This document shows positions 1,568-52,609 of a stretch of 64,000 bases of DNA, piece after piece (the stretch's first letter is position 1; each line of letters begins with the position of its first letter). The stretch spans positions 118,767-182,766 of the forward strand of contig VXTM01000021.1 in NCBI GenBank assembly GCA_009837445.1, written 5' to 3'. Position numbers and translations under genes: made by a program. This DNA is from Acidimicrobiaceae bacterium (GTDB lineage: Bacteria > Actinomycetota > Acidimicrobiia > Acidimicrobiales > Aldehydirespiratoraceae). Below the pieces are notes generated by a model. The model did not search any database. It saw only the letters and a program-made list of their open reading frames with translations, and was not told the origin of the DNA.

Positions 1568-2341
1568 CTACCGGCCCTTCGCGGCGCCGGTGCGGCGGAA
1601 GGTGACGCTCATCCGGGGCGGGGCGGAGGCAACCTTCGGTATCGAGTGCTCCCAGTCCTGCTGGCAGGAGCCGCCCATGACCAGCAGGTCGCCCGACGCC
1701 AGAGTGAACGAGCGGCTCCGGCCCCCGCCCACTGGCCTAAGTGTCCGCTCTTGTTCGCTGCGCTCACGGGCCGCTCGGGCCACGGCCTCGCCCGTATGGG
1801 CCGCATCCGCATGCCGACCCGCTCGGCCTCTGAGCAGGAACCGGCGGGGGCCTCCCAGCGACACGATCGCCACCACGGCGTTGGCGGGGTCGATCCCGAT
1901 CCGGTCACTGTGCCAGGCCACCGAGTCCCGGCCTCCGCGGTAGTAGTTGACCCAGACCGAGTTGAACCGGCAGCGGTAGCGGTCGCCCAGAGCCGAGGCC
2001 ATCTCGTCGATGACGGTGGGAACACCGACCGACCGGAGCCGCAGGTGGGCTCCCAGACGCGGTTCCTCCACCATCTGCCCGTACATCGGGCGCTCGGCCC
2101 GGGTCCACCGCAGCTCCGCAGCGAGATGCTCGAGAAGCTCGTCGCCGCCCTGCAGCCACCGGGTCGCCACCTCGATCCAGCTCCTGCCGTCCAGCTCCAG
2201 GTGCTCCACCGCCGCCGAGGCGTTCACGGCCGGCTGCCCCTGGGCGAACAGGTCACCCTGGAACGGCCCCACATCGGCCTGAGTGCCTGACCTGGTGCCC
2301 CATCTGGCGCCCGATCCTTTGCCCGATCCGGCAGTCGTCAC
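1568..2341 (-). CDS. alkB: AlkB-like Fe(II)/2-oxoglutarate-dependent dioxygenase (alkylation repair) carrying an in-frame repeat insertion of about 30 aa
   Basis: Motifs NYYRGGRDSVAWHSDRIG (HxD), DLLVMGGSCQQDWEHSIPK (distal His) and MSVTFRR. The start is uncertain: GTG at 2341 or GTG at 2272 (VGPFQGDLF). The loop between FLLR and SFTLASGDLLVM is about 30 aa longer than I recall for AlkB-family proteins and is encoded by repeat copy 1. Confidence 0.75.
   Translation of the reverse strand: MTTAGSGKGSGARWGTRSGTQADVGPFQGDLFAQGQPAVNASAAVEHLELDGRSWIEVATRWLQGGDELLEHLAAELRWTRAERPMYGQMVEEPRLGAHLRLRSVGVPTVIDEMASALGDRYRCRFNSVWVNYYRGGRDSVAWHSDRIGIDPANAVVAIVSLGGPRRFLLRGRAGRHADAAHTGEAVARAARERSEQERTLRPVGGGRSRSFTLASGDLLVMGGSCQQDWEHSIPKVASAPPRMSVTFRRTGAAKGR
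1743..1831 (-). repeat. Dispersed ~90-96 bp repeat, copy 1 (inside the alkB CDS, in frame)
   Basis: Reverse complement reads AGAGGCCGAGCGGGTCGGCATGCGGATGCGGCCCATACGGGCGAGGCCGTGGCCCGAGCGGCCCGTGAGCGCAGCGAACAAGAGCGGAC. It aligns end to end with copies 4, 5 and 6. Confidence 0.85.
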
Positions 2342-2425: not shown

Positions 2426-3964
2426 GTGCTGTTCCCCACGTTCACCTTTGCGGCGTTCTTCGCCGTGGTCCTGCCGGTGAGCTGGGCTCTGAAACGGTTC
2501 CCGACGCCGTGGAAGCTGTTCGTCCTGGGCGCCTCGTACTGGTTCTACGCGGCCTGGGACCGGCGTTTCGTGCTGCTGCTGGTGGCCATGACCCTGGTGA
2601 ACGCGGCCGCGGCCCGGATGAACCGGCGATTCGCCCACCCCGGCGCCCGCCGGGCCGCGTTGGCGGTGGCGGTGGTCTTCGACCTCGGGGTGCTGGCCTT
2701 CTTCAAGTACTACGGCTTCTTCACCCAGAGCCTGGAGAGCAGCTTCGGGATCTCCAGCCCGGCTCTGAGCATCGTGCTGCCCATCGGCATCTCCTTCTTC
2801 ACGTTCCAGGCCATCAGCTACGCGGTGGACGTCCACCGGGGTGACACCGATCCCGCGCCGCTGCTCGACTTCGCCGTCTACCTGTCGTTCTTCCCCCAGC
2901 TGGTGGCCGGGCCGATAGTCCGGGCCAGGGAGTTCCTCCCGCAGATGCGGTTCCCGCGCCGGTCCCGCCACCGGGGCAACGGATCCGGCCGGCGTGAGCT
3001 CGAGGAGCCGGTGCAGTTGGAGCTGTGGTCGGATCGGGGCCTCGACCGGATCGAGCTGGGCCGGGCGGCCCAGCTGATCGGCAGGGGGATGTTCAAGAAG
3101 GTGGTGGTGGCCGACTTCCTGGCCGGGGCCATAGTGGACGAGGCGTTCGCCTCCCCGGGCAGCTACGGCGCCGTCGACGTGCTCTTCGGGGTGTACGGCT
3201 ACGCGGTCCAGATCTACGCGGACTTCTCGGGCTACACCGACATGGCCATCGGAGTGGCCCTGCTGATGGGATTCCGTTTCCCGCAGAACTTCGACCGGCC
3301 CTACGCGGCGGTGTCGATCCAGGACTTCTGGCGGCGCTGGCATATGACGCTGTCGCGCTGGCTGCGCGACTACCTGTACATCCCCCTGGGCGGAAACCGG
3401 CGGGGCCGGGTGCGCACCTACGTGAACCTGCTCGTCACGATGGGGCTGGGCGGCCTGTGGCATGGGGCGGCCGGCGTGTTCGTCGTCTGGGGCCTCTACC
3501 ACGGCGTCGGGCTGGCAGCCGAGCGGCTGGCCGGCCAATTGCGGCCGGCCCGAGCCTTGGCCGGGAGAGCACCCGACGCCGGCCCGGCCGCGTCGCGGGC
3601 CTCGAGCGCACCTGGTGCCGGATCGGCGCTGGGGGAGTGGCTGCGGGTGCTGGCCGTGTTTCACTTCGTGTGCGCGGGCTGGGTGCTGTTCAACAGCGAG
3701 ACGCTGGCCCACGCCGGTGACGTCTTCGAGCGCCTGCTGTCGGGGTGGGGGACCGGCACCGAGCTGCTCACACCGACGGTGCTGGCCGTGATCGTGGGAT
3801 CCGTCCTGGCCCAGTACGTGCCGCTCGACTTCGCCGAACGTTGGTCGAAGCGGACGGCGGCGGCCCCCTCCGCGGTGACCGCGGCCGCGTTCGCGGTGTG
3901 GACAATGATCGTGGTGGCGCTCGGCCCCGAGGGCGTCGCCGACTACATCTACTTCCAGTTCTGA
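2426..3964 (+). CDS. MBOAT-family membrane-bound O-acyltransferase (AlgI/DltB/PatA-like)
   Basis: 512-aa polytopic ORF with GTG start. Motifs include ISFFTFQAISYAVDV, FPQLVAGPIVRA, FWRRWHMTLSRWLRDYLYIPLGGNRRG (conserved His) and LWHGA. Confidence 0.85.
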   Translation: MLFPTFTFAAFFAVVLPVSWALKRFPTPWKLFVLGASYWFYAAWDRRFVLLLVAMTLVNAAAARMNRRFAHPGARRAALAVAVVFDLGVLAFFKYYGFFTQSLESSFGISSPALSIVLPIGISFFTFQAISYAVDVHRGDTDPAPLLDFAVYLSFFPQLVAGPIVRAREFLPQMRFPRRSRHRGNGSGRRELEEPVQLELWSDRGLDRIELGRAAQLIGRGMFKKVVVADFLAGAIVDEAFASPGSYGAVDVLFGVYGYAVQIYADFSGYTDMAIGVALLMGFRFPQNFDRPYAAVSIQDFWRRWHMTLSRWLRDYLYIPLGGNRRGRVRTYVNLLVTMGLGGLWHGAAGVFVVWGLYHGVGLAAERLAGQLRPARALAGRAPDAGPAASRASSAPGAGSALGEWLRVLAVFHFVCAGWVLFNSETLAHAGDVFERLLSGWGTGTELLTPTVLAVIVGSVLAQYVPLDFAERWSKRTAAAPSAVTAAAFAVWTMIVVALGPEGVADYIYFQF

Positions 3965-5205
3965 TGCGCAGGCTCCTGGTGAGGCGGACCCGGCGGTGGC
4001 TGAGCTTCGTGGTCGAGGCTGTGGGCCGCAGGCTGCGAGGGCTGTGCCGGGCGGTGGGCCAGGTCCGACCGCCGCTCCCGGACACCGGTGACCACGAGAC
4101 ACCGACGAAGTCCGTGCGGGCCTCGGTCCTGTCGGCGACCCTGTGCCTGGGGGTGGCCGCCCTGCTCGTCAGCGGCAAGATCGTGGAGATCGCCGACCGG
4201 CTGCCTCTGGGCCCGGATCGGGACCGCTGGCTGGAGGCAGCCACCGAGACCGACGACCTGGCCAACAGCGTGTCACTGAACCGTCCCTACGACCTGCTGC
4301 GCGACCTGCGGGGTGTCGGGGACGAGGCCGGCCAGCAGATTGATGTGATCGGCGACGTGGAGGACCTCCTGCAACCCGAGGCACCCACCGAGCCCGACCA
4401 GGCGATCGACGACGCCGGGGCGCCCAGCTCGTCGGGCGAGTCCCCGGTGGCCCCGACCACCACCGCGGCCACCCCAAGCCCGACCACCACGACGGTGCCC
4501 GAGGACCCGCCGGCCTACGTTCGCCCCGTGCCGGTGACGTCCGAGACTCCCCTGAGGGTCTGGGTGGCGGGCGACAGCCAGGCCCTCTACCTCGGGCAGG
4601 GCTTGAGGCGCGACAGCCCCCTCACGGACGTGATGGAGATAACCCTCGACCAGCGGCACTCCACCGGCCTGTCCCGTCCGAGCTACTTCAACTGGCCGGT
4701 TCACCTCTTCGCGATCGCAGGGACCTACAACCCCGAGCTGGTGGTGGCCACCCTGGGCAGCAACGACTGGCAGTCCATGACAGCGCCGGGCGGCGACCTC
4801 CTCGACCGGGGGACCGACGAATGGAACGCCGAGTGGTCCCGGCGCCTCGGCGTCCTCTTCGACGTCCTGAAGCCTCGTCACCGGCACGTGATCTGGGTCG
4901 GCCTGCCCCCGACCCGCCGCGACGACTTCCGGGAGGGCTACGCGCTCATGAACCAGCTGGCGGCGGCCGAGGTGGCGAAACGAGACTTCGTCTCCATGAT
5001 CGACATCTGGGACATGTTCGGCGGCGACGAGCCCTACCGCGACGCGGTCCCATCGCCCGACGACCCCGAGGGCAGGCCGGTGCTCGTTCGCCAGCAGGAC
5101 GGGGTGCACCTCAACCGGACAGGCTCGAGCTGGGTGGTGGGCGTGATCAGCGGCGAGATCCAGCAGATCATCGACAGGATCAGCCCCCAGAGGCCGAGCG
5201 GGTAG
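3964..5205 (+). CDS. SGNH/GDSL-type hydrolase (DUF459-like), membrane-anchored partner of the MBOAT
   Basis: The ATG at 3964 overlaps the MBOAT stop (TGATG). It has an N-terminal TM segment (LSATLCLGVAALLVSG) and a Pro/Thr linker. SGNH blocks are VWVAGDSQ, TLGSNDWQ and QDGVHLN. The last 5 codons (QRPSG-stop) are encoded by the repeat-head motif. Confidence 0.7.
   Translation: MRRLLVRRTRRWLSFVVEAVGRRLRGLCRAVGQVRPPLPDTGDHETPTKSVRASVLSATLCLGVAALLVSGKIVEIADRLPLGPDRDRWLEAATETDDLANSVSLNRPYDLLRDLRGVGDEAGQQIDVIGDVEDLLQPEAPTEPDQAIDDAGAPSSSGESPVAPTTTAATPSPTTTTVPEDPPAYVRPVPVTSETPLRVWVAGDSQALYLGQGLRRDSPLTDVMEITLDQRHSTGLSRPSYFNWPVHLFAIAGTYNPELVVATLGSNDWQSMTAPGGDLLDRGTDEWNAEWSRRLGVLFDVLKPRHRHVIWVGLPPTRRDDFREGYALMNQLAAAEVAKRDFVSMIDIWDMFGGDEPYRDAVPSPDDPEGRPVLVRQQDGVHLNRTGSSWVVGVISGEIQQIIDRISPQRPSG
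5189..5205 (+). repeat. Solo copy of the repeat 5' head (AGAGGCCGAGCGGGTAG) forming the C-terminus and stop of the SGNH gene
   Basis: Reads cAGAGGCCGAGCGGGTAGgcg. Compare copy 5 aAGAGGCCGAGCGGATAGgcg and the 46854 site tAGAGGCCGAGCGGATAGggc. Confidence 0.55.
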
Positions 5206-5213
5206 GCGTCGGG

Positions 5214-8253: not shown

Positions 8254-9011
8254 TCGAGTTCACCGCTGACGGCAACGTCGCCGTCATCACCATGAACCGT
8301 CCCGAGGCCCGCAACGCGGTCAACGGCGCCATCTCCAGCGGGCTTGAGGCCGCGATCGATCGGCTCGAGGCCGACGACTCGCTGTGGTTGGGGATCCTCA
8401 CCCACACCGGGCCGGTGTTCTCCGCCGGCGCCGATCTGAAGGCCATCGCGGAGGGACGGTTCCGGGAGTTGTCCACAGCCAGGGGCGGCTTCGGCGGGAT
8501 CGTGCTGCGCTCACGGACGAAGCCGCTGATCGCGGCCATCGACGGTCCAGCGCTCGCCGGCGGAACCGAGATCGCGCTCACCTGCGATCTGCGGGTGGCG
8601 TCGACCGCGGCCCGGTTCGGCCTCCCCGAGGTGAAGCGATCGCTGATCGCCGCCGCCGGCGGCCTCGTGCGGCTGCCGCGCACCATTCCTGCGGCCATCG
8701 CCATGGAGATGGTCCTCACCGGCGACCCGATCAGCGCCGAGCGGGCCCTGGATCTCGGTCTCATCAACGAGCTGTGCGAGCCCGGCCAGGCGTTCGACGC
8801 CGCCCGGCGCCTGGCGGACCGTGTCAATGCCAACGGCCCGCTGGCGGTGAGGGAATCCCGCAGGCTGGTGCTGGAGAGCTTCACCCAGACCGATGAGGAG
8901 TCGATCACCGCAGCCGGCAGGGCCCAGATGGGCCTGCGCAGCACCGAGGACTTCGCCGAGGGCCCTCGCGCCTTCATCGAGAAGCGGCCCCCGGTCTGGA
9001 AGGGCCGCTAG
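8250..9011 (+). CDS. Enoyl-CoA hydratase/isomerase (crotonase family)
   Basis: The ATG overlaps the upstream stop (ATGA). Motifs VAVITMNRPEARNAV, FSAGADLKA and GPALAGGTEIALTCDLRVAS. Confidence 0.85.
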   Translation: MIEFTADGNVAVITMNRPEARNAVNGAISSGLEAAIDRLEADDSLWLGILTHTGPVFSAGADLKAIAEGRFRELSTARGGFGGIVLRSRTKPLIAAIDGPALAGGTEIALTCDLRVASTAARFGLPEVKRSLIAAAGGLVRLPRTIPAAIAMEMVLTGDPISAERALDLGLINELCEPGQAFDAARRLADRVNANGPLAVRESRRLVLESFTQTDEESITAAGRAQMGLRSTEDFAEGPRAFIEKRPPVWKGR

Positions 9012-9026
9012 AGGCCGAGCGCGAAC
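9009..9026 (+). repeat. Solo repeat-head-like motif (TAGAGGCCGAGCGCGAAC) filling the gap between two convergent stops
   Basis: Its TAG is the crotonase stop, and the NUDIX stop follows at 9027. It matches the head consensus in 13 of the first 14 positions. Confidence 0.45.
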
Positions 9027-9434
9027 TCAGACGATCGTCGGGATCACCCCGTGGTCGTGCAGGAACTCGGCCAGCCCGTCCACTAGCCGCAACCCGGCGA
9101 CCTCGGTCACGGGCCACCACCGGGCCTCCGATGCGTCGCTCCCGGCGCAGGGGGTCAAATCGCCACTCACCGTGGCCTCGAAGTCCAGGATCACGAAGTG
9201 GTGGTCGTCTCCGATGCGCTCCACCCAGCCCACCAGCCGGCCGCAGACCCCGTTCAGCCCGGTCTCCTCCTGCAGCTCGCGGGTCACGGCCTCCATCAGC
9301 ATCTCGCCAGGCTCGACCCGTCCTCCCGGCACGGACCACTCCCCCGCGCCCGGCGGGCGGCCGCGCCTCACCAGCAGCAGTTCGTCGGCGCGGCGAACGA
9401 TCGCGCCCACCGCGACCTCCACGTCTGAGATCAT
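9027..9434 (-). CDS. NUDIX hydrolase
   Basis: Nudix box GGRVEPGEMLMEAVTRELQEETGL. Confidence 0.85.
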   Translation of the reverse strand: MISDVEVAVGAIVRRADELLLVRRGRPPGAGEWSVPGGRVEPGEMLMEAVTRELQEETGLNGVCGRLVGWVERIGDDHHFVILDFEATVSGDLTPCAGSDASEARWWPVTEVAGLRLVDGLAEFLHDHGVIPTIV

Positions 9435-9931: not shown

Positions 9932-10448
9932 CCTGGATCCTCTCGATGGACTCGCAGGGCTCCTCGCCCGACGGGCAGACCGGATTGGCCCGCGATCCGA
10001 ACTGCGACACGCTCACGATGAGGAAGCACTGGTTGCAGGTCCATTCGTCCGAACGCGGCGGCGCCACCGACGCGGCAGCCTTGGTCTGACCGGGGGCCTC
10101 CTCCTCCTCGTCCTCCTCGTCGTCGTCACTCGCCGCGATGCGGTCCCGGAGGATCTCCTCCAGGTCGGCCTCCACGTCGCTGGGGTGAACCTCCTCGTCG
10201 TCGTCGTCCTCAGCCGGCAACGGGACATCGTCGTCGTCCTCGTCGTCCTCGTCGTTCTCCTCCAACTCGGCTTTACCGTCGTCGTCGCCGATGCCGTCCT
10301 CGTCGTCGGTGAAATCCTCGTCGTCGGTGAAATCCTCGTCATCGCCGAAGTCCTCATCGTCGCCGAAATCCTCGTCTATTTCGGCTTCGAATTCCTCCCC
10401 GTCGCCGAAGTCGAGATCGGCGTCGTCAAGAGGGTGTTTGTCGGTCAT
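9906..10448 (-). CDS. Acidic DUF4193-like protein with a C-terminal Cys cluster
   Basis: The N-terminal two thirds are about 50% Asp/Glu. The C-terminal part reads EWTCNQCFLIVSVSQFGSRANPVCPSGEEPC, which as I recall is the DUF4193 pattern conserved in Actinobacteria. Confidence 0.65.
   Translation of the reverse strand: MTDKHPLDDADLDFGDGEEFEAEIDEDFGDDEDFGDDEDFTDDEDFTDDEDGIGDDDGKAELEENDEDDEDDDDVPLPAEDDDDEEVHPSDVEADLEEILRDRIAASDDDEEDEEEEAPGQTKAAASVAPPRSDEWTCNQCFLIVSVSQFGSRANPVCPSGEEPCESIERIQGDLDRRGG
10298..10369 (-). repeat. Coding tandem repeat, 4 x 18 nt (DEDF[GT]D hexapeptide units) inside the DUF4193 gene
   Basis: Units cctcgtcgtcggtgaaat, cctcgtcgtcggtgaaat, cctcgtcatcgccgaagt, cctcatcgtcgccgaaat. 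Confidence 0.9.
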
Positions 10449-10603
10449 CTCTACTGCTGAGGGGTCGCGGCCGGGGGACGTGGGCGGATCATAGACACAG
10501 ATCGACGAAGTGCGACGGCATTTCCGGGCGGCGCGACTAGGCGACTGCTCGAGTATGCGAGCGAATCCGGCTCATACCAGGCCAGGCCGTGGCTCGAGCC
10601 GGC

Positions 10604-12247
10604 TTACAGGCTCGAGGACGGGTGGGACTGCGATGCCCTCAGTTGCTCGGCCCGCTTCTCCGCGTCGAGCCGGCCCAGCCCGAGATCCTGCTCATGGTTG
10701 ACGAACGACATGAGCTCCGCGACCGCGACGTGACCGGCCTCCTCGGCGATGAGACGGTGCATCTGCTGGCACACGCGCCGGTAGGCCGGATGTCCCTGCA
10801 GGGTGGTGCGCAGCTCGACCATGTGCATGGCCTCGCGGGCGTTCATCTGCATCGAGTAGCGCACCCGGTAGGCGAGGGCGACTGCGTAGGCGGCCTGATC
10901 CGGCAGCTCGGCGCTGAGCGCCTCGTAGAGCCGGGCCGACCGGCCCATCACCTCGTCGAACTGCTCGTCCACACCGGCCGCGCCGACCGCTTCGGGCCGG
11001 ACGAAGCCGTGGCGGGTGGACAGGGGCTGCCATTCGATGGTGAGCATCCGGTGGCGCTGCAGGTCGCGGAACGCCCCGTAGTCGGACAGCACATCGAAGC
11101 GGTAGTAGACGCGCTCGAGGGCCCGGCCGGGCCGGTGGCGGCGGTTCGTGCGCTCACCGCAATAGGACCGCACCACATCGACGCGCTCGGCGGCCGACAT
11201 GGACCTCACCCTGGCCTCGATGGTGCGCTCCGGAAGCGACGTGTGGGGGTACAGCATCGCGGTGATCACCTTCGTCTCCCCGTCGGGATCGAAGTCCATC
11301 AGCTCCACCGAGTCGTCGGTCACCGGGCCTCCGACGGCGTCGCCGAATACCCGGCCGGCCAGGTCGTCCATGGCGGCGCGGTTGCCCGCCATGTAGCGGG
11401 TGGTGAGCTCGCCCCGGTCGGGCAGGTCCACCCGCTTCAGGAACGATGGGATCACCTTGCGCAGTTCGGTGAGCATCATCTCGGCATAGGAGCGCGACTC
11501 GGGAAGGGGGTGGGCCCGCATCCGCAGCAGCAGGGCCTCATAGGACTGGCCCGTCCCGTAGATGCCCACGTTGCTCAGGGACGCAGCCGGCAGCATCCCG
11601 CGGATGGAGTCCAGCGCCCGGGCCTTGATGGCCTGCCGGTAGGCGAAGTCAGAGTCGCCCTCCTGCTTGGGAACGTTGGCCCGGAAGAAGTCCTGCATGA
11701 CCGGGACGAGCTCCGAGTAGGTCGTGAACATGCGGTCGATGTCGCCCACATAACGGGTGCCCAGCGACGAGTTGAGCACCTGGGCGTCCCGGTAGTAGCG
11801 GTACCGCCCGCCCAGCCGCTGGTCGTAGGCGATGTAGCGGGTGCTCTGCTCGAGGTAGGCCATCAGCCGGCCCCACTCCAGCACTTTGGTGAGGAGGTTG
11901 GAGGCCTGCTCGCAGGCCAGATGGACACCGCCCAACTGGGCCACGGAGTCGTCGCCGTACTCGAAGAAGACCCGGTCGTACAGGGCCTCGGCTCTGCGCA
12001 GGCCGACGGTTGCGTCGATGGTGATGTCGCCCGTGATGTCCAAGTCGTCGACGAACTCGTCGAGGAACAGCCGGCGCAGACTCGACATCGAGCGCGAGTA
12101 GCGGGCGAACAGGGCGCCCTTCACGACCTCGGGCAGGTTCACCAGCGCGAACACCGGCTGGTCCAGGTTGGTGAAGTACCGGCGCAGTATGTCGGCCTCG
12201 TCCGCAGAGAAGGACTCAGCCGCGTACAGGTTCACGGGGCGCGACAC
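10604..12247 (-). CDS. Long (547 aa) ThyX/Thy1-domain protein (FAD-dependent thymidylate synthase family)
   Basis: Motifs ALFARYSRS, DLQRHRMLT (RHR motif) and HMVELRTTLQGHPAYRRV. It is about twice the length of canonical ThyX, and the Ser of the RHRxxS signature is Thr. Confidence 0.6.
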   Translation of the reverse strand: MSRPVNLYAAESFSADEADILRRYFTNLDQPVFALVNLPEVVKGALFARYSRSMSSLRRLFLDEFVDDLDITGDITIDATVGLRRAEALYDRVFFEYGDDSVAQLGGVHLACEQASNLLTKVLEWGRLMAYLEQSTRYIAYDQRLGGRYRYYRDAQVLNSSLGTRYVGDIDRMFTTYSELVPVMQDFFRANVPKQEGDSDFAYRQAIKARALDSIRGMLPAASLSNVGIYGTGQSYEALLLRMRAHPLPESRSYAEMMLTELRKVIPSFLKRVDLPDRGELTTRYMAGNRAAMDDLAGRVFGDAVGGPVTDDSVELMDFDPDGETKVITAMLYPHTSLPERTIEARVRSMSAAERVDVVRSYCGERTNRRHRPGRALERVYYRFDVLSDYGAFRDLQRHRMLTIEWQPLSTRHGFVRPEAVGAAGVDEQFDEVMGRSARLYEALSAELPDQAAYAVALAYRVRYSMQMNAREAMHMVELRTTLQGHPAYRRVCQQMHRLIAEEAGHVAVAELMSFVNHEQDLGLGRLDAEKRAEQLRASQSHPSSSL

Positions 12248-17106: not shown

Positions 17107-17592
17107 TCAGGCCGCAGTCTCGGTACCGGAGTCCGGCTCATCCGGAGGCGATTCCTCGCCATCCTCGGGCGGCTCCCAGTCGGCATCCTCCGGCATCGCC
17201 GTCTTCTCCTCGATGGGCTCCTCGGCCGCGCCCCGGAGCTCCTCATCAGCAGCCTTCAACGCCTCCTTGGACTCCTCGATGGGCTCCGCGGCCGCCTCAC
17301 GGAACTCCTTGTCGGCCGCCTTCAGGGTCTCCTTCATCTCCTTGATGGGCTCCTCGGCCGCCTCACGGAACTCCTTGTCGGCCGCCTTCAACGCCTCCTT
17401 GGACTCCTCCAGGGTCTCCTGCAGGGGCTGCGCGGCCTCTCGCAGCTCCTGCTGGAAGCCCTGCCCGATGCGGCGGACCTCGCCGACCACCCTGCCGATC
17501 TGGCGGATGGCAGGGGGCAGCTTGGTGGGCCCGAGCACGATCAGGGCGACGAGCAGGATTACAAGGACCTCTCCCCCGCCCAGATTTCCCAC
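17107..17592 (-). CDS. tatA: TatA/TatB-family translocase subunit with a repeat-expanded C-terminal tail
   Basis: N-terminus GGGEVLVILLVALIVLGPTKLP followed by an amphipathic helix. The C-terminal tail is built from 22-aa repeats. Confidence 0.8.
   Translation of the reverse strand: MGNLGGGEVLVILLVALIVLGPTKLPPAIRQIGRVVGEVRRIGQGFQQELREAAQPLQETLEESKEALKAADKEFREAAEEPIKEMKETLKAADKEFREAAAEPIEESKEALKAADEELRGAAEEPIEEKTAMPEDADWEPPEDGEESPPDEPDSGTETAA
17211..17408 (-). repeat. Coding tandem repeat, 3 x 66 nt, in the tatA tail
   Basis: Unit starts are at 17211, 17277 and 17343 (cgatgggctcc...). The peptide unit is approximately KEALKAADKEFREAAEEPIEES. Confidence 0.9.
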
Positions 17593-24561: not shown

Positions 24562-24693
24562 AGAGGCCGAGCCGGTGGGCCGCACCCAGTCGGAACGTCG
24601 CGAGGCCCACGGGCCCGAGCGGCCCGTGAGCGCAGCGAAGGTGAGCGGGATGCGGGCCCGAGCGGCCCGTGAGCGCAGCGAACAAGAGCGGGA
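24562..24693 (+). repeat. Dispersed repeat, copy 2 (dop-pup intergenic) with an internal 43-nt tandem duplication
   Basis: The head AGAGGCCGAGCCGG starts at 24562. The core GGGCCCGAGCGGCCCGTGAGCGCAGCGAA occurs at 24611 and again at 24654. The copy ends ...AACAAGAGCGGGA, 2 nt before the dop stop. Confidence 0.85.
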
Positions 24694-24695
24694 GA

Positions 24696-26213
24696 CTACG
24701 CGCCTGCGGAGCCCAAGCGTCGCAGCAGCTCCATCGCGGAGCCGCACTCGTCGAACATGTCGCCCACGTGTGCGACCGTTCCCCGGGCCGGCTCGGTCAT
24801 GGAGACCCGCCGCAGGGAGCCCTCGCCCACATCGAACACGATCGAGTCCCAGTTGGCCGCCACCACCTCGGCCGCGAACTTCTGCAGGCAGCGGCCCCGG
24901 AAGTAGGCCCGGGTGTCGGGCGGGGGCTCGGTCATGGCCCGGACGGCGGCGGCCTCGTCCACCAGAGTCTCCAGCCCGGCCCGGGCGGCCAGGGACCGGT
25001 CCGGGCGCAGATCGTGGTACTGGATGTCGAGGGCCCGCAGCCGGACGTCCTGGAAGTCGAGGCTGTGGCGGTCCCGGAAGCCCTCCAGGAGCCTGAGCTT
25101 GGCCACCCAGTCGATCTGACCGGCCAGCCCGGCCGGGCCGCGTTCCAGGCCGCCGAGCACGTCCTCCCACCGGGCCAGCACCTGGTGGGCCACCTCGCCG
25201 CCGGCCGCGTCGGCTCCCCGCTGCTCCACATAGGTGCGGGCCGCGGCCAGCAGCTCCCACTGCACGCCGAGAGCGGTGATGGTGGTGCCGTCGGCGAGCT
25301 CCAGCGGTTGGCGCAACTGCAGGTCGCGGCTCACCTGGCGCAGCGCGGCCACCGGCGCGGCGAACCGGAACTCGCGGGGCATTGCGTCGTCCTCGGTGAG
25401 GGCCATCACCAGCGCGGTCGTGCCGACCTTGAGGAAGGTCGCCACCTGCGACATGTTGGCGTCCCCGACGATCACGTGCAGGCGCCGGTACTTGGCCGCG
25501 TCGGCGTGGGGCTCGTCGCGGGTGTTCACGATGGGACGCTTGAGGGTCGTCTCCAGGCCGACCTCCTCCTCGATGAAGTCGGCCCGCTGGGAGATCTGGT
25601 AGCCGGCCTCGTCCAGGCGCATGCCGGAGGTCTCGCTGCCCATCTTGCCGGCACCGCAGAAGATCTGGCGGGTCACGAAGTGCGCGGTGGCGTGAGTGAC
25701 GATGCGGGAGAACGGCACGGCCCGGCTCACCAGGTAGTTCTCGTGGCAGCCGTAGCTGTTGCCCTTGCCGTCGGAGTTGTTCTTGTAGACCACGATCTCC
25801 TCGCCCGGTGGCAGCAGCATCCGGGCCGCCTCCATCGAGCGGGCCGCGATCAGCTCGGCAGCCCGGTCGTAGACGACCACCGAGCGGGCGTCGGCGCACT
25901 CGGGGGTGGACAACTCGGGATGGGCGTGGTCGACGTAGTAGCGGGCGCCGTTGGTGAGCACCGCGTTCACCAGGTGGGTCTCGATCTCGGGAGCGAGCGA
26001 CCCCGCCGGCGCGCCGCCGCGGGCGTCGTTGCCGGGGGTCTCGTCGGTGAAATCCCAGCCCACCGCGGCCCGGCCCGGCTCCGGCGCGTGACCGTGGGCG
26101 ATCAGGTAGGCGTTGATAAGCAGCGACGAGGCCGAGATGGGGTTGGGCTCGGAGGCTCCCCGGTGGACGATGCCGTACTCGGTCTCGAGCCCGAGCATCT
26201 TGGGGACAGCCAT
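24696..26213 (-). CDS. dop: Depupylase/deamidase Dop
   Basis: N-terminus MAVPKMLGLETEYGIV. It is a PafA paralogue of 505 aa located next to pup. Confidence 0.9.
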   Translation of the reverse strand: MAVPKMLGLETEYGIVHRGASEPNPISASSLLINAYLIAHGHAPEPGRAAVGWDFTDETPGNDARGGAPAGSLAPEIETHLVNAVLTNGARYYVDHAHPELSTPECADARSVVVYDRAAELIAARSMEAARMLLPPGEEIVVYKNNSDGKGNSYGCHENYLVSRAVPFSRIVTHATAHFVTRQIFCGAGKMGSETSGMRLDEAGYQISQRADFIEEEVGLETTLKRPIVNTRDEPHADAAKYRRLHVIVGDANMSQVATFLKVGTTALVMALTEDDAMPREFRFAAPVAALRQVSRDLQLRQPLELADGTTITALGVQWELLAAARTYVEQRGADAAGGEVAHQVLARWEDVLGGLERGPAGLAGQIDWVAKLRLLEGFRDRHSLDFQDVRLRALDIQYHDLRPDRSLAARAGLETLVDEAAAVRAMTEPPPDTRAYFRGRCLQKFAAEVVAANWDSIVFDVGEGSLRRVSMTEPARGTVAHVGDMFDECGSAMELLRRLGSAGA

Positions 26214-30913: not shown

Positions 30914-32083
30914 CTAGCGGGCCGGAGGTGCGTAGATCAGGCCGCCGTCGAGCCATCCGGCGTTGGCCGAGCCCTCGCGGGTCAGGCCGACCGGGTTCAG
31001 GTGGCGGGCGTAGATCTCGTCGTAGTTACCGACCTGGGCGATCACCTGGTAGAAGGCGTCGGGGGCCAGGCCCATGTTCGACTGCTGCTCATCGTCAGCT
31101 GCGCCGAGCAGGCGGGCCGCCTCTGCGTCGGGCGGGTTGGCCGCCATAGCGTCGACGTTGGCCGAGGTGATGCCCTTCTCATCGGCGATGATCGTGGCGT
31201 ACACGGTCCAGTTGACCACGTCCGCGAAGCGGGACTGGTTCTGACCGTAGGTCGGGCCCAGTGGCTCCTTGGAGATGGGCGTGGCCGGGAAGATCACCCA
31301 GTTCTCGCCGGCGGGCTGCTGGTTGGCCTTGCGGCCGACCAGGGCCGAGCCGTCGGTGGTGATGACGTCGCAGGCGCCGTTGATGAAGTTCTCGGTGACC
31401 TGGTCGAAGTCCTCGAACGTCGTGAGCTGAATCGAGATTCCGGCCGCATCGGCGGCATCGGCGATGTTCTGCTCGGTAGTCGTGCCGGCGTTGGTGCACA
31501 CCACCGCGCCCGCAATGTCGACCACCTGCGAGGCCCCCGAGAAGCCGGCGGACTCGCGCGCCATGAGCTGCTGGCCGTCGTAGTAGGTGGTCGGGCCGAA
31601 GTCCATGCCCACCTCGGTGTCACGGCTCTGCGTCCAAGTGGTGTTGCGCATCAGCACGTCCACCTCGCCCGTCTGCACCGCAGTGAACCGCTCAGCCGCG
31701 GTCAGCGGGGTGAACTCGACCGCGTTGGCATCGCCGAACAGCGCCGCGGCCACCGCACGGCAGTAGTCGGCGTCGAAGCCGGTCTGGGAGCCGTCGGGCT
31801 GGGTCTCAGAGAACGCCACCGCCGAACCGGACACGCCACAGTGCAGGTCGCCGCGGGCGAGGACCGTGTCGAGCAGGTCGCCTTCCTGGGTCACGATGAC
31901 CTCGTCGGCGGCAGTGGTTGTGGTCTCCTCCGGCGCCGCGGCCGTGGTCTCCGGAGCCGTAGTGTCTTCGGGCGCTGCTGTGGTGCCGGTGCCGTCTTCG
32001 TCGTCGCCGCAGGATGCAGCAATGAGCGTTACCGCGAGCATGACAGCGAGCACGCGCCAGACAAGAGCTTTCTTAAGAGTCAC
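30914..32083 (-). CDS. Amino-acid ABC transporter substrate-binding lipoprotein (AapJ-like), copy A
   Basis: GTG start with RBS GGAGGGAG. The signal/lipobox reads LAVTLIAASCG. It is about 75% identical by eye to the neighbouring copy B. Confidence 0.85.
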   Translation of the reverse strand: MTLKKALVWRVLAVMLAVTLIAASCGDDEDGTGTTAAPEDTTAPETTAAAPEETTTTAADEVIVTQEGDLLDTVLARGDLHCGVSGSAVAFSETQPDGSQTGFDADYCRAVAAALFGDANAVEFTPLTAAERFTAVQTGEVDVLMRNTTWTQSRDTEVGMDFGPTTYYDGQQLMARESAGFSGASQVVDIAGAVVCTNAGTTTEQNIADAADAAGISIQLTTFEDFDQVTENFINGACDVITTDGSALVGRKANQQPAGENWVIFPATPISKEPLGPTYGQNQSRFADVVNWTVYATIIADEKGITSANVDAMAANPPDAEAARLLGAADDEQQSNMGLAPDAFYQVIAQVGNYDEIYARHLNPVGLTREGSANAGWLDGGLIYAPPAR

Positions 32084-32200: not shown

Positions 32201-33358
32201 TCAACGCGCCGGTGGCGCATATATGAGGCCGCCGTCGCTCCAGCTTGCGTTGATCGAGCCGCGGGTCAGTCCCGCCGGCTCGAGGTGGCGGGCGAGGATC
32301 TCTCCGTAGTTGCCCACCTGCGAGACTGCCTGGTAGAAGGCGTCGGGAGCCAGGCCCATGGCTGACTGCAGCTCCCCCTCGCCGCCGAGCAGGCGGCGCG
32401 TCTCGGCGTCGGGCGGGCTGGCGACCATCTCGGCCACGTTGTCGGAGGTGATGCCCTTCTCGTCGGCGATGATCGTGGCGTAGACCGCCCAGTTGACCAC
32501 GTCACCGAAGCGGGACTGGTTCTGCTGGTACACGGGGACGAGGGGCTCCTTGGAGATCGGGGTGGCCGGGAAGATCACCCACTCCTCGTCGGCGGGCTGC
32601 TGCTTCGCCTTGCGCCCGGCCAGGGCCGAGCCGTCGGCCGTGGTCACATCGCAGGCGCCGGTGATGAAGTTATCGATGATCGTGTCGAAGTCCTCGAGCG
32701 TGGTGAGGGTGATGCCGATACCGGCGGCGTCGGCGGCGTCGGAGACGTTCTGCTCAGTCGTTGTCCCGGCCAGGGCGCACACCACCGCGCCGGCAATGTC
32801 GGCCACCTGCGACGAGGCGGAGAAGCCGTCGGACTCGCGGGCCATGAGCTGCTGGCCGTCGTAATAGATGACCGGACCGAAGTCCAGGCCCACCTCGGTG
32901 TCGCGGCTCTGGGTCCAGGTGGTGCTGCGAAAGAGCACGTCGATGTGGCCGGACTGCAGAGCCGCAAAGCGCTCTGCGGTGGTGAGCGAGACGAACTCCA
33001 CCGAGTCGGCGTCGCCGAAGATGGCCGCGGCGACGACTCGGCAGTAGTCGGCATCGATCCCGAAGACGCTGCCGTCTGGCTGGGTCTCCGAGAAGATCAC
33101 CCTGGTGCCGGAGACTCCACAGAGGAGCCTGCCTCGCGCTTGCACTGTCTGGAGGAGGTCAGCATCGCCCCGGTCGTCGACGGCATCGGCGGCCGTCGTA
33201 GAGGGTTGCTGGGCCTCCGACGCCGCCGCCGTTCCGGCCTCCGGCTCTCCGGTGAGCTCAATTCCTGCGGTGTCCTGCGGGTCGGGTTCTCCGCAGGCCG
33301 CCAAGGCAAGGGCGGCGGCCAACAAGGCTCCGAGCAGCCGAGACACTGTCAGGCTCAC
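32201..33358 (-). CDS. Amino-acid ABC transporter substrate-binding lipoprotein (AapJ-like), copy B
   Basis: I prefer the start GTG 33358 (VSLTVSRLLGALLAAALALAACG lipobox). The track start at 33406 lies inside repeat copy 3. Confidence 0.8.
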   Translation of the reverse strand: MSLTVSRLLGALLAAALALAACGEPDPQDTAGIELTGEPEAGTAAASEAQQPSTTAADAVDDRGDADLLQTVQARGRLLCGVSGTRVIFSETQPDGSVFGIDADYCRVVAAAIFGDADSVEFVSLTTAERFAALQSGHIDVLFRSTTWTQSRDTEVGLDFGPVIYYDGQQLMARESDGFSASSQVADIAGAVVCALAGTTTEQNVSDAADAAGIGITLTTLEDFDTIIDNFITGACDVTTADGSALAGRKAKQQPADEEWVIFPATPISKEPLVPVYQQNQSRFGDVVNWAVYATIIADEKGITSDNVAEMVASPPDAETRRLLGGEGELQSAMGLAPDAFYQAVSQVGNYGEILARHLEPAGLTRGSINASWSDGGLIYAPPAR

Positions 33359-33381
33359 GGCCGAACCGGCCGCAGCGTCTG

Positions 33382-33443
33382 TCCCGCTCTTGTTCGCTGC
33401 GCTCACGGGCCGCTCGGGCCACGGCCTCGCAAGCTAGGCCTCT
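33382..33443 (-). repeat. Dispersed repeat, copy 3 (truncated, arc stop / binding-protein B start intergenic)
   Basis: TCCCGCTCTTGTTCGCTGCGCTCACGGGCCGCTCGGGCCACGGCCTCGC followed by ...GGCCTCT. The CATAC-to-head middle part is missing. Confidence 0.75.
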
Positions 33444-43730: not shown

Positions 43731-44608
43731 TGGAGTGGCTCAACGCCATCGTCCAGGGGATCATGCTGGGCGGGCTGTTCGCGCTGTTTGCCACCGGGCT
43801 CTCGCTCGCCTTCGGGGTGATGCGCTTCGTAAACCTGGCCCACGGGGACCTGGCCATCCTCGGGGCATTCGTGGCCGTGTCCGTCACCTCCGCGCTGGGC
43901 CTCAACCCGTTCGTATCGCTGGTGATCGTGGTGCCCGTCATGCTGGCCACCGGGTACGCACTCCAGCTAGGCGCGTTCAACTTCACGATCAGCGCCGACC
44001 CGCTGCCATCGATCCTGGTCACGTTCGGACTCGGAATCGTGATCCAGAACGTGCTGCTCGAGACATACAGCGCCGACTCGCGGGGCCTGGACGTGGGCTC
44101 GATCGAGATCGAGAGCATCAGGATCACCGACGCCATCGCCATCGGCTGGATCCCGCTGATCACGCTGATCGTCGCGGTGGCAGTACTCGGAGCTCTACAG
44201 CTGATGCTGTCACGCACCCCGCTGGGTCGGGCCTTCAGGGCGGTCTCCGACGATCCGCCGACGGCCCGGCTCATGGGGATAAACGACCGCAACCTCTACG
44301 CGGTGGCCATGGGCATCGCCTTCGCCACCGTGGCCGTGGCCGGCGTCTTCCTCGGAATCAGGCAGAGTTTCGGGCCCCTCGACGGTCCGGCCCAGCTGCT
44401 GTACGCCTTCGAGGCAGTGGTCATCGGGGGCCTCGGGTCGGTGTGGGGCACTCTGGTGGGCGGGCTGCTGCTCGGCGTGGCCCACACCGTGGGCGGACAG
44501 TTCGAGGTTGCCTACGGCTACGGCTCCGGCCCTCTCGTCGGCCATCTCGTGTTCCTCGTGGTGCTCGCCACCAAACCCAGCGGCCTGCTCGGGCGGAGAG
44601 CCGAATGA
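43730..44608 (+). CDS. Branched-chain-type ABC transporter permease (LivH-like)
   Basis: The ATG overlaps the upstream stop. N-terminus MEWLNAIVQGIMLGGLFALFATGLSLAFGVMRFVNLAHGD. Confidence 0.85.
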   Translation: MEWLNAIVQGIMLGGLFALFATGLSLAFGVMRFVNLAHGDLAILGAFVAVSVTSALGLNPFVSLVIVVPVMLATGYALQLGAFNFTISADPLPSILVTFGLGIVIQNVLLETYSADSRGLDVGSIEIESIRITDAIAIGWIPLITLIVAVAVLGALQLMLSRTPLGRAFRAVSDDPPTARLMGINDRNLYAVAMGIAFATVAVAGVFLGIRQSFGPLDGPAQLLYAFEAVVIGGLGSVWGTLVGGLLLGVAHTVGGQFEVAYGYGSGPLVGHLVFLVVLATKPSGLLGRRAE

Positions 44609-45672
44609 CCGGGCACCGGGTCACCCGCTCGGACCGCCAGTCCACCGCGGGGCTGGCCGTGTCGGCCGTACTGCTGGTGGTGCTGTTCCTGCTGCCCTGG
44701 TGGGACAGCGACGGCAGCCTCCGGGTGCCGCTGGTCGCGATCCTCTACTACCTGGCGCTGGCGCAGATGTGGAACCTGCTGGCCGGGTTCGCGGGGCTGG
44801 TGTCGATCGGCCAGCAGATGTTCGTGGGCATCGGCGTGTACACGTTGCTGAGTTTCGCCGAGGACTTCGGCGTCGACCCCTACCTGTCGGTGCTGCTGGC
44901 CGGTTTGGTGGCGGCAATCCTGTCCCTGCCGGTGGCCGCCTTCGCCTTCCGCCTGCGGGGCGGGTACTTCGCCATCGGCACCTGGGTGATTGCCGAGGTC
45001 TTCCGGCTGATCGCGCTGGAGAGCGACTTCCTGGGCGGAGCCAATGTCCGGACCCTCACCCGGGAGTCGCTGGGCGGTTACTCGCTCGACACCCGCAACA
45101 CCGTCACCTACCTGATGGCCCTGGGACTGGCCGCAGGGGCCACCGCCATCGTGGTGCTGGTGCTGCGGTCACGACTGGGCCTCGCCCTGCGCTCCATCCG
45201 CGACAACCAGGAGGGGGCCCGGGGCCTGGGCGTGTCCGTAGGCAGGGCCAAGCTGGCGGTGTGGGTCATCTCCGCGTTCTGGACGGGCATGACCGGCGCG
45301 GTGATCCTGCTCCACAACCCGTCGACCCGGGCCGAGTCCGCCTTCAGCGTGTTGCGCTGGACCGCGCTGGTGGTGTTCATCGCCATCATCGGAGGCGTCG
45401 GCTCCACCACGGGGCCTATCGTCGGGGTGGCCATCTACTGGTTCGTGAGGGAGTTCCTCGAGGATGCCGAGGAGTGGCGGTTCATCATCCTGGGCTTAAT
45501 CGCGGCCGCCATGGCCATCATGGCCCCCAGAGGTGTCTACGGACTGCTCCAGAAGCGGTGGCCGGTCCAGTTCTTCCCCGTCCGCCGAAGACTTGTGGGT
45601 CCCGGTGTAGGCGGCCCCGCGCCCGGTGGCCCGGCCCAGCCGGTGGCCGACGCCGGCCACCCACCGGTGTGA
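44605..45672 (+). CDS. Branched-chain-type ABC transporter permease (LivM-like)
   Basis: The ATG overlaps the LivH-like stop (ATGA). The segment LALAQMWNLLAGFAGLVSIGQQMFVGIG is present. Confidence 0.8.
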   Translation: MTGHRVTRSDRQSTAGLAVSAVLLVVLFLLPWWDSDGSLRVPLVAILYYLALAQMWNLLAGFAGLVSIGQQMFVGIGVYTLLSFAEDFGVDPYLSVLLAGLVAAILSLPVAAFAFRLRGGYFAIGTWVIAEVFRLIALESDFLGGANVRTLTRESLGGYSLDTRNTVTYLMALGLAAGATAIVVLVLRSRLGLALRSIRDNQEGARGLGVSVGRAKLAVWVISAFWTGMTGAVILLHNPSTRAESAFSVLRWTALVVFIAIIGGVGSTTGPIVGVAIYWFVREFLEDAEEWRFIILGLIAAAMAIMAPRGVYGLLQKRWPVQFFPVRRRLVGPGVGGPAPGGPAQPVADAGHPPV

Positions 45673-46856
45673 CCGGTGCCGCCTACATCGTCGACGCGGT
45701 GCGAACGCCGGTCGGCAAGATCGGTGGGGGCCTAGCCGGGGTCCGCCCCGACGACCTGGCAGCCACCGTCATCGCGAACCTGCTCGAGCGCTCCCCCGGC
45801 CTCGATCCGGCCACCATCGACGATGTCCATTTCGGCAACAGCAACGGTGCGGGCGAGGAGAACCGCAACGTGGCCCGCATGGCCGCCCTGCTGGCCGGCA
45901 TGCCCACCTCGGTTCCCGGAACGACGGTCAACCGGCTGTGCGGATCGGGGCTGGAGGCCGTTGTCGGAGCCAGCCGGGCCATCGCGGTCGGAGACGCCGA
46001 CCTGTGCATCGCCGGCGGCGTCGAGTCGATGACCCGGGCTCCGTGGGTGGTGGCGAAGCCGGAGCGTCCCTACGAGCGCGGCCATCAGCAGATGCACTCC
46101 ACCACGCTGGGCTGGCGGCTGGTCAACCCGCGCCATCCTGATCGTTGGACGGTGCCTCTGGGCGAGGGAGCCGAGATTCTGGCCGAGAAGTACGCCATTA
46201 CCCGGGCCCTGCAGGACGGCTTCGCCCTGCGCAGCCATCAGAAGGCGGCCGCAGCCTGGACCCGCGGCGAATTCGCCGACGAGGTCGTGGGTGTCCATGG
46301 CGCCGAACTCGACCGCGACGAGACGATCAGGCCCGACACATCCCTCGACGGGCTGGCTCGGCTGCGACCGGTGTTCCGCCGCGACGGCTCGGTGACCGCA
46401 GGCAACTCCTCGCCCATGAACGACGGCGCCGCCGCGCTGCTGCTGGCATCCGAGGCCGGCCTCGCCTCGACGGGGCGGACACCCCTCGCGCGGGTGATGA
46501 GCCGGGCCGTGAGCGGCGTCGACCCGGATCTCTACGGCATCGGCCCGGTCGAGGCCGCCCGCACGGCTCTCAAGCGGGCCGGCATCGGCTGGTCGGACCT
46601 GGCCGCGGTCGAACTGAATGAGGCCTTCGCAGCCCAGTCACTGGCGTGTCTGGCGGAGTGGCCCGAGCTCGACCGGCGGATCGTCAACCCGCTGGGAGGC
46701 GCCATCGCCATCGGCCACCCCATCGGAGCCAGCGGGGCGCGCATCCTCACGACGCTGGCCCATCACCTGCGGCACCGGGGAGGCCGCTACGGCCTGGCCG
46801 CCATGTGCATCGGGGTCGGGCAGGGCATCGCGGTCACCATCGAGTCCTGCGCCTAG
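45669..46856 (+). CDS. Acetyl-CoA C-acyltransferase (thiolase II; PcaF-like by context)
   Basis: The GTG overlaps the LivM-like stop (GTGTGA). It has NRLCGSGLEAV (active-site Cys), NEAFAAQ, GHPIGASGARI and CIGVGQG. Confidence 0.85.
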   Translation: MTGAAYIVDAVRTPVGKIGGGLAGVRPDDLAATVIANLLERSPGLDPATIDDVHFGNSNGAGEENRNVARMAALLAGMPTSVPGTTVNRLCGSGLEAVVGASRAIAVGDADLCIAGGVESMTRAPWVVAKPERPYERGHQQMHSTTLGWRLVNPRHPDRWTVPLGEGAEILAEKYAITRALQDGFALRSHQKAAAAWTRGEFADEVVGVHGAELDRDETIRPDTSLDGLARLRPVFRRDGSVTAGNSSPMNDGAAALLLASEAGLASTGRTPLARVMSRAVSGVDPDLYGIGPVEAARTALKRAGIGWSDLAAVELNEAFAAQSLACLAEWPELDRRIVNPLGGAIAIGHPIGASGARILTTLAHHLRHRGGRYGLAAMCIGVGQGIAVTIESCA

Positions 46857-46975: not shown

Positions 46976-46978
46976 GGG

Positions 46979-47800: not shown

Positions 47801-47892
47801 GGATGCTCCTTTCTCCGGTGCGCGGTTATCCCGCGGCCGGGCGCTCCGGACAGGCGCTCGGCCGCGGGAGTCGCGGTCGGTAATGGACGTGC

Positions 47893-49010: not shown

Positions 49011-49044
49011 GCCGGCGAAGCCGAACATCAGAGAAAGGACTGCC

Positions 49045-52591: not shown

Positions 52592-52609
52592 CTGCGGGCA
52601 GCCGCCCAG

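Follow-up and report, generated by a model that had tools for sequence, protein, structure and literature searches.

The mycobacterial interspersed repetitive units (MIRUs) are actinobacterial intergenic repeats that overlap the stop codons of flanking genes, follow those genes in orientation and vary in tandem copy number; they are tandem direct repeats with small open reading frames (ORFs) that couple stop and start codons. The REP/BIME sequences are hairpins of 20-40 nt that are linked to RAYT transposases and abundant just after stop codons, and REPs within ~15 nt of a stop codon have been reported to affect the expression of the upstream gene. [quoted passage not shown] Among bacteria, MITEs are found across the 3' ends of genes and fused to ORFs (PMC5896051, PMC2229807), and overlap of gene 3' ends by a few bases, C-terminal extension and in-frame residence have been described among Coxiella QMITE1/2 (PMC5896051) and among Correia, ERIC and the Rickettsia palindromic elements (RPE) (PMC2229807). 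Here we analysed a stretch of 64,000 nucleotides from an Acidimicrobiaceae bacterium (assembly GCA_009837445.1, contig VXTM01000021.1, positions 118,767 to 182,766; hereafter the 64-kb window), in which a short repeat head, AGAGGCCGAGCGG(ATAGGCG), coincides with the ends of several genes. This head probably forms the terminal inverted repeats of a MITE-like mobile element, non-autonomous and 113-150 nt long, that tends to land on stop codons and to rebuild them. The element adds a new family, from an uncultivated lineage, to the class of bacterial MITEs. It stands out by AGAG/CTCT ends that regenerate stops, by a core that is conserved and can be amplified, and by its biased orientation.

The element consists of the head, a spacer of 10-45 nt, a conserved core (GAGGCCGTGGCCCGAGCGGCCCGTGAGCGCAGCGAACAAGAGCGGGA) that starts 24-63 nt downstream of the head and, after a further ~35 nt, a tail (CACCTATCCGCGCACGCTCT) that repeats the head in inverted, imperfect form. 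The head, read as AGAGGCCGAGCGGATAGGCG, pairs with this tail, and the terminal inverted repeats of ~18-20 nt (AGAGGCCGAGCGGATAGG) are near-perfect in the window copy at 46855-46975 and in one related locus (L027). Copies fall into length classes of 113, 137 and 148 nt, together with a short class that seemingly lacks a tail. To sample related genomes, we took a stretch of 20 nt from the core and scanned a single genome of each species, which gave at least 120 loci of 8 kb (~1 Mb in total), all of them in metagenome-assembled genomes of Ca. Poriferisodalis, Ca. Aldehydirespirator, Acidimicrobiales or Microthrixaceae; related loci are L-numbered below. These loci hold at least 150 copies. In the window, nhmmer with a hidden Markov model of 23 full copies detected seven copies, one of them degenerate (10548-10599), and there are three solo heads besides. 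The element is spread and abundant in sponge-symbiont Acidimicrobiia; the window itself comes from a metagenome-assembled genome of this group, of one species with GCA_009838345.1, and complete chromosomes with the family include OZ244866.1, OZ242033.1 and NZ_OZ242363.1. We found nothing in the literature on repeats in Ca. Poriferisodalis or Ca. Aldehydirespirator.

Being small, non-coding, present in many copies and bounded by terminal inverted repeats, the element resembles bacterial MITEs (~100-400 bp). With Correia/NEMIS, ERIC/RU-1, RUP and QMITE1/2 in particular it has in common a length of 100-200 nt, terminal inverted repeats, many copies without coding capacity, predicted long stem-loop transcripts, and filled and empty sites that are polymorphic between strains. 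Overlaps of 1-50 bp with gene 3' ends and C-terminal extensions supplied by the element are likewise known from these MITEs (PMC5896051, PMC2229807). Unlike them, the present element has AGAG...CTCT termini in place of TA, and the apparent target duplication is a single base (or TNA) instead of TA. Its core is better conserved than its terminal repeats and is amplified in tandem with a 43-nt period, its orientation is non-random, and its hosts are uncultivated high-G+C Acidimicrobiia with no known parent insertion sequence (IS).

Under the explanation that we favour, the element would insert at short T/A-containing sites, CTAG or CTNAG, which in a genome of 70% G+C are rare and would be concentrated at stop codons (window G+C ~70%; the window has 45 CTAG sites, and 19 of them overlap called stops). 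With ends that read AGAG...CTCT, an insertion behind base one or two of a stop codon of any kind would rebuild an in-frame stop (T+AG, TA+A or TG+A), and the CTCT end would do the same for a convergent gene on the other strand. Insertions of this kind would leave the protein unchanged and would survive. Where the element landed a few codons upstream of a stop, or where a junction TAG mutated to CAG, translation would enter the head, whose third frame, (x)AG AGG CCG AGC GGN TAG, encodes RPSG and a stop; the same tail would thereby be placed on two unrelated proteins. Solo heads would be left by internal deletions of full copies that had bridged two convergent stops.

The abundance of the motif departs clearly from chance. 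The window contains five exact and three one-mismatch copies of the 13-mer head, and 17 matches at up to two mismatches, compared with 7.6 +/- 2.7 in shuffles. In the ~1 Mb of related loci, the 13-mer was matched 122 times at up to one mismatch, compared with a mean of 3.8 for 60 permuted 13-mers, and the core 28-mer occurs six times in the window and not once in shuffles. A chance origin of the motif was rejected on the basis of the shuffles and the permuted motifs. An earlier note on this window had stated that the number of genes ending at the motif seems too high for chance, and the stop-codon tally agrees with it: we estimate the chance that AGGCC directly follows any one TAG stop at ~0.002, so that ~0.06 cases would be expected among the 30 TAG stops of the window, and four were seen. 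Stop usage in the window is 33 TGA, 30 TAG and 4 TAA, a share of TAG above that in the related loci (31%).

These counts bear on the proposal that the repeats are REP-type palindromes moved by a RAYT (IS200/IS605-like) transposase, or that they coincide with stop codons by chance in a G+C-rich genome, which we consider extremely improbable. The repeats are indeed short, abundant and mostly intergenic, they lie mostly at gene ends, just after stops as REP/BIME sequences do, and a near-palindrome, GCCGAGCGGC, is found in the head. However, the head alone does not form a stable hairpin and is not a self-folding unit of 20-40 nt, and the repeated unit, at 113-150 nt with a unique core, is much longer than a REP; chance is excluded by the shuffles, the permuted motifs and the stop-codon tallies. 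Two other sequences suspected as head-derived stops, AGCGGGTAG at 56199 and AGCGAATAG at 56862, were found not to be derived from the head.

The copies in the window, together with a native gene end that lies behind one of them, are as follows.

1739-1831, minus strand: tailless copy of head and core, 93 nt long, lying in frame within the minus-strand gene 1568-2341, which encodes an AlkB-like 2OG-Fe(II) oxygenase; detected by nhmmer

5189-5208, plus strand: solo head AGAGGCCGAGCGGGTAGGCG, of which the third frame forms the last five codons and stop (QRPSG-stop) of the DUF459/SGNH gene 3964-5205

9010-9026, plus strand: solo head, 12 of 13 bases matching, which takes up the 15-nt spacer where the crotonase and NUDIX genes converge and contributes the AG of the crotonase stop T-AG (9009-9011)

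10530-10603, plus strand: degenerate partial copy (spacer and start of the core; nhmmer match 10548-10599, E = 3.8e-5), ending at the TAA stop of Thy1 (10604-10606, minus strand)

24562-24695, plus strand: copy with the core duplicated at a 43-nt period (24612, 24655), found by core match and nhmmer; gene 24696-26213 (minus strand) has its TAG stop (24698-24696) directly against the 3' end of this copy

33382-33443, minus strand: short-type copy in which the head is truncated, AGAGGCCtagc, and joined to the core (3' limit uncertain, maybe ~33335); the Mpa/ARC proteasomal ATPase, with the conserved end ...QYL-stop, takes the AG of its TAG stop (33444-33442) from the first two bases of the copy, so that the gene ends TAG/AGGCC

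46855-46975, minus strand: complete copy of 121 nt, with terminal inverted repeats at 46855-46876 and 46962-46975 and the core at 46886-46934 (minus strand)

51604-51741, plus strand: complete copy of 138 nt, six codons before the native stop of the CoA-transferase gene; the third frame of the head reads KRPSG-stop (51603-51620)

51742-51762, plus strand: displaced native 3' end of the CoA-transferase gene, ACG CCG CAG CCC GAC ACA TAG (TPQPDT-stop), untranslated behind the element

52603-52622, minus strand: solo head, 12 of 13 bases matching, in the 29-nt spacer where the citrate-synthase-like gene converges with that of the S1 protease, whose stop T-AG (52623-52621) takes its AG from the head

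58500-58586, plus strand: diverged copy with an exact head and a degenerate core, not at a gene end and probably in a divergent intergenic region

All five coincidences between gene ends and the head that had been listed in the earlier note were recovered. The DUF459/SGNH hydrolase ends on the head with cAG AGG CCG AGC GGG TAG (5188-5205), giving ...ISPQRPSG-stop, and the family III CoA-transferase with aAG AGG CCG AGC GGA TAG (51603-51620), giving ...WLSKRPSG-stop. Three genes stop at a TAG with AGGCCGAGC behind it, the TAG of TAGAGGCCGAGC: the crotonase gene at 9009-9011, the thiolase gene at 46854-46856 and, on the minus strand, the S1 protease gene at 52623-52621. The count of five was nevertheless too low, as the Mpa/ARC gene is a sixth case and further gene ends adjoin copies. 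Three of the four sites taken for solo heads (5189, 9010 and 52610) are indeed solo, but the one at 46854/46855 is the tail-side terminal inverted repeat of the complete 121-nt copy. This copy takes up almost all of the sequence that separates the stop of the thiolase (46854-46856, T+AG) from that of the dioxygenase (46979-46981, minus strand), the latter lying 3 nt from the other end of the copy.

We then considered the position of stop codons relative to the 131 heads that are attached to a core in the related loci. Stops were found 13 times at -1 (TAGAGG), five times at -2 (TAA/TGA + GAGG) and four times at 0 (TGAGG), which together account for 22 of the 131 heads, compared with 0-5 stops (mean ~0.5) at each of the other positions within +/-30 nt. 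After loci with similar flanks were collapsed, the peak persisted with 10, 5 and 4 stops at -1, -2 and 0, respectively. Among the 838 called gene ends of the related loci, 259 are TAG stops, and 23 of these are followed by AGGC; 19 of the 61 TAGAGGCC 8-mers are in-frame gene stops, and six of 22 solo heads lie on TAG stops. Because a broad preference for positions downstream of genes cannot yield a spike at three positions, the insertion site itself must be involved. The earlier note had proposed to tabulate, genome-wide, the distance and phase of the motif relative to stop codons against a shuffled control; the spike at -2 to 0 comes from the ~1 Mb of related loci, with neighbouring positions as the reference.

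The origin of the TAG codons was addressed by comparing filled sites with relatives that lack the element. In four of five comparisons, the last residue of the protein was unchanged and the stop codon was TGA (crotonase in L128, S1 protease in L127, thiolase in L130 and the pair L033/L052); the exception was the thiolase of L132, with TAG at the same protein end. Four TGA codons in five is close to the background stop usage in the related genomes, which is 64% TGA and 31% TAG. As the same protein end carries TGA in these relatives, TAG at the filled sites appears to be made of the T of the old stop and the AG of the element, and TAG itself would not be what the element seeks. The suggestion that the element targets TAG or gene ends thus stands for gene ends, where stop codons are hit at -2 to 0, but not for TAG.

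The element is an insertion/deletion polymorphism between close strains, as bacterial MITEs are. Filled and empty states were observed between the window and L127 (CoA-transferase), L130 and L132 (thiolase) and L129 (AlkB-like gene), as well as between L125 and L028. In L127, of which the flanks are ~96% identical to the window and the CoA-transferase 98%, the 138-nt copy at 51604 is absent; the empty site reads CTGTCGGCGCCGCAG and the filled site in the window CTGTCCA[AGAGG...CCCCT]ACGCCGCAG, with exactly one extra base beyond AGAGG...CCCCT. One extra base was also found on comparison of L125 with the pair L028/L010. The thiolase/dioxygenase spacer measures 12-29 nt in relatives, compared with a 121-nt copy in the window. 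The 'empty' sites of L072, compared with L088, retain stumps of the element, AGAGGCCG or AGAGGC.

A further filled site is located within a protein-coding sequence. The 93-nt copy in the AlkB-like gene encodes an insert of 31 residues (RGRAGRHADAAHTGEAVARAARERSEQERTL), and BLASTP alignment with the orthologue in L129, to which the protein is 78% identical overall, leaves a 31-residue gap at this position; the insert is kept in all six sister strains. In being palindromic and resident in frame, the element is similar to the RPE, which sit in frame inside conserved protein genes (PMC2229807). It has no sequence relationship to them, and only one in-frame internal copy occurs in the window, most copies being at gene ends.

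The RPSG ends were then compared with those of orthologous proteins, as the earlier note had proposed, and orthologues without the repeat do not end in RPSG. The closest relatives of the CoA-transferase end in WLS-APQPDT-stop, more distant ones in WLS-APASDG, WLS-TPASDT and similar tails, and RPSG was found at none of the 120 ends among the relatives listed. Relatives of the SGNH hydrolase end in RISP-DTPG-stop, RISP-DPG-stop or RISP-stop. As relatives end otherwise, and as the displaced CoA-transferase tail is still present at 51742-51762, RPSG is, on this sequence comparison, not native to either protein. The proposal that insertion has remodelled C-termini is well supported by these orthologues and by the native tail at the empty site in L127. 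At the SGNH site, three states were observed: a full inverted copy right after ISP-TAG (L129), a degenerate head after TGA (L128) and the solo head of the window. In sister strains, CAG replaces TAG at 5203-5205 and the protein ends in RPSGQASG-stop. The CCC CAG AGG of the window gene may most simply be read as a junction TAG turned into CAG, with translation reaching the internal TAG of the head. RPSG tails directly before a stop were found in three more cases in other genomes.

Several other protein ends in the related loci were also altered next to sequences of this type. The thiolase of L131 ends in ...ESCEGPASG-stop on GAAGGGCCAGCCTCCGGATAG (3680-3703), a degenerate head in the RPSG frame, and other relatives end in ...ESCA-stop. 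The citrate-synthase-like protein of L127 ends in IERP-stop, its counterpart in the window in PPAPPA-stop. In L009, from position 7391, the ORF of an M20 peptidase reads ~25 codons into a short-type element (GAG GCC GAG CTT...) before reaching TAG; the orthologue in the window stops earlier, at TGA.

The solo heads appear, from their sequence and position, to be deletion remnants of full copies. In the crotonase/NUDIX spacer, the stump lies on opposite strands in the window (9009-9029) and in L128 (~4880-4900, at the NUDIX stop), and the same holds for the spacer between the citrate-synthase-like gene and the S1 protease (window 52580-52625; L127 ~2760-2795), where a head-like GAGAGGCCCTGA on the opposite strand ends the citrate-synthase-like gene of L127. 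Stumps on opposite strands are expected if a full copy once bridged both stops and each lineage kept a different end. The copy at 46855-46975, which bridges two convergent stops today, may serve as a model for the ancestral state of these spacers.

The earlier note had also considered that the head is itself a functional 3'-end signal. This was not borne out, as the solo heads have neither a significant fold nor a U-tract terminator and vary between close relatives. Folding z-scores of the solo heads were -0.47, +0.25 and -0.13, no better than shuffles, and no U-tract terminator was found at any of them. A search for intrinsic terminators in 44000-54000 returned one weak antisense hit, inside the copy at 51604, which is fewer than in shuffles; apart from this terminator-like hit, canonical terminators and promoters were rejected for the copies. 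Full copies fold into long head:tail hairpins. A conserved RNA structure was also rejected: RNAalifold on the 23 full copies predicted an invariant small hairpin with compensatory changes in none of 14 predicted pairs, and Rfam models matched nothing in the window at gathering thresholds, nor anything in 51580-51760 at E <= 1.

A number of observations weigh against a mobile element of the kind proposed. Some of them concern the data: gene ends were called by a GC3/GC1-GC2 ORF rule and not by a trained gene finder, although the rule matches the deposited gene calls over the first 19 kb of the window, and 20 bases of the core are conserved by construction, being the search pattern. A tail was recognized in 55 of the 131 copies, leaving 76 of 131 without a recognizable one. 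No autonomous element or transposase with these ends was found in the ~1 Mb of 8-kb loci. A strict search for pairs of a head and an inverted head returned only neighbouring copies in opposite orientation, with no transposase-sized segment evident between paired heads, although ORFs between the pairs were not examined, and a loose search was uninformative. The target duplication also fits imperfectly, as the data agree either with one base and A...T-terminated ends or with a three-base TNA, and the filled/empty pairs favour one base, which is unusual for DDE transposons. In addition, conservation is highest in the internal core and not in the terminal repeats, which is atypical of a purely selfish MITE, and the copies are oriented non-randomly, where random insertion predicts no bias: the head faces the end of the upstream gene in 57 cases and the tail in 23 (p = 2e-4), or in 50 and 20 cases (p = 4e-4) after removal of orthologous loci.

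We examined the flanks for evidence of the target. The flank consensus is palindromic, C-Y-N/AGAGG...CCTCT/N-R-G (slashes mark the ends of the element), with C in 57% and Y in 91% of left flanks, followed by N and then A, and with T, N, R (89%) and G (72%) on the right. Left and right flanks carry the same base at N in 25 of 54 copies, compared with 14.7 expected (p = 0.0025). A TA duplication of the IS630 or Correia type was rejected, as (T,A) flanks occur in one of 54 copies and identical bases are enriched. Young copies (two in L048, and those in L089 and L106) can be read as TAA/TAA or TTA/TTA duplications and fit a simple three-base TNA duplication, but the four TGA-versus-TAGAGG comparisons and the CoA-transferase site would fit it only with extra mutations. 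The empty sites (CTG, GGC/CAC and TGG) lack the T...A of a TNA target, and the ends may be read as (A)GAGG...CCTC(T) with flanks C-Y-N-A/GAGG...CCTC/T-N-R-G. If A/T is counted as flank in this way, the ends would begin GAG(G), as in the IS1031 and IS427 groups of the IS5 family. IS5-family elements use CTAG/CTAA or three-base targets, and the palindromic, T/A-centred target is a second likeness (PMC9241763, PMC11677980, PMC2516522). Unlike the IS5 family and PIF/Tourist, the present element has no transposase found with it and has empty sites without T and A, and the likeness comes from ends and flanks only.

The flanks also bear on a different mode of insertion, in which a stop-codon-homing integrative element would recombine site-specifically, its joined ends (CCTCT-N-AGAGG, which contains CTNAG) crossing over with C-Y-N-R-G sites at the central base. 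The flank consensus C-Y-N/.../N-R-G mirrors the termini of the element, only the central N is common to both flanks, the net gain is one base in each of the two cleanest filled/empty pairs beyond the AGAG...CTCT ends, and the targets CTG, CAC/GGC and TGG have no T and A for a TNA duplication. We nevertheless regard this mode as quite improbable: no recombinase was identified, terminal inverted repeats of ~18-20 nt are typical of DDE transposons, the young copies in L048 (two), L089 and L106 are equally readable as three-base TAA/TTA duplications, and only two filled/empty pairs are reasonably clean.

The orientation bias and the core raise the question of a role in the host. Outside the 20-nt search pattern, the core is at least 90% conserved across genera. 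Because of this conservation and the orientation bias, a role of the full element at the transcript level is possible, and the full element may act in the transcript of the upstream gene. As an alternative explanation of the bias, the antisense strand bears the only T-rich stretch, a hairpin plus CUCUUGUUC, and this may be counter-selected in operons. A stronger proposal is that the whole repeat is a 3'-end module selected by the host, that is, a terminator, an mRNA stabilizer or a stop-proximal structure that tunes translation termination, which would be transcribed together with the upstream gene and kept in position by selection. The orientation bias of whole elements (57 versus 23, or 50 versus 20), a core nearly invariant across genera, the long head:tail hairpins of full copies and insertions common to several species (L043, L055 and L098) are consistent with such a module. 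We consider it unlikely, however, given the unstructured solo heads, the lack of U-tract terminators at the copies beyond the single weak antisense hit, and the absence of covariation in the 23-copy alignment and of an Rfam match. Further, copies are present or absent at ~96% flank identity, stumps differ in strand and length between close relatives, copies are also found inside ORFs and in a divergent promoter region, and the sharp peak at -2 to 0 is more simply explained by the insertion site. An extension of the mobile-element explanation would hold that stop codons are evolved safe havens, the AGAG/CTCT termini having been selected to regenerate a stop on either strand, and that the core and the sense-biased orientation represent a second, host-level role in the 3' untranslated region (UTR), through transcript stabilization, termination or control of translation termination; this is conceivable but rather doubtful.

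The core is also the part of the element that is amplified. Tandem units with a 43-nt period number two in the window (24612/24655) and six to seven in L019, and such tandem sites were located at 24612-24693 in the window, at 3355-3589 in L019, at 4302-4366 in L016 and in L032. Most copies of the element are single, and the 43-nt unit is not a multiple of three. The actinobacterial host, the overlap with stops, the gene-following orientation and the tandem variation in copy number are shared with the MIRUs, whereas the inverted ends, the unique core and the mostly single copies distinguish the element from these tandem repeats.

Together, these results trace a set of annotation oddities in sponge-symbiont Acidimicrobiia to a single mobile repeat and not to the biology of individual genes; they include RPSG/PASG tails on unrelated proteins, TAG stops followed by AGGCC, the 31-residue insert of the AlkB-like oxygenase and ORFs extending into repeats. 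The element provides a natural example of a mobile element that is harmless on stop codons, its own end rebuilding the stop, and that occasionally creates new C-termini. At about one copy per 7-10 kb, it bears on strain typing and genome dynamics and probably also causes breaks in assemblies. Should the biased orientation and the conserved core reflect function, this uncultivated lineage would have in it a candidate regulatory module of the 3' UTR.

Some minor observations were made on the element and on other repeats of the window. In L124 (minus strand), a copy at ~1971 is flanked by a 13-nt direct repeat, CTGACGCCAGAGG, that holds a second AGAGG and is unexplained by the simple insertion model. 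A likeness to the D-arm of class II tRNAs, GGCCGAGCGGttgaAGGC, was noted for the head, GGCCGAGCGGataGGCg (5189-5208, 51604-51623), where it covers ~10 nt only, and for a stretch of the core, GGCCCGAGCGGCC; ARAGORN and Rfam detected no tRNA-like fold, and the likeness is probably a coincidence. Elsewhere in the window, the adjacent minus-strand genes 30914-32083 and 32201-33406 are tandem paralogues, in which 31102-31401 and 32383-32682 match over 300 nt at 84% identity and further segments are in common. Tandem repeats of 66 nt lie within a coding region at 17153-17416, and an acidic (D/E-rich) repeat with an 18-nt period is located at 10224-10425.

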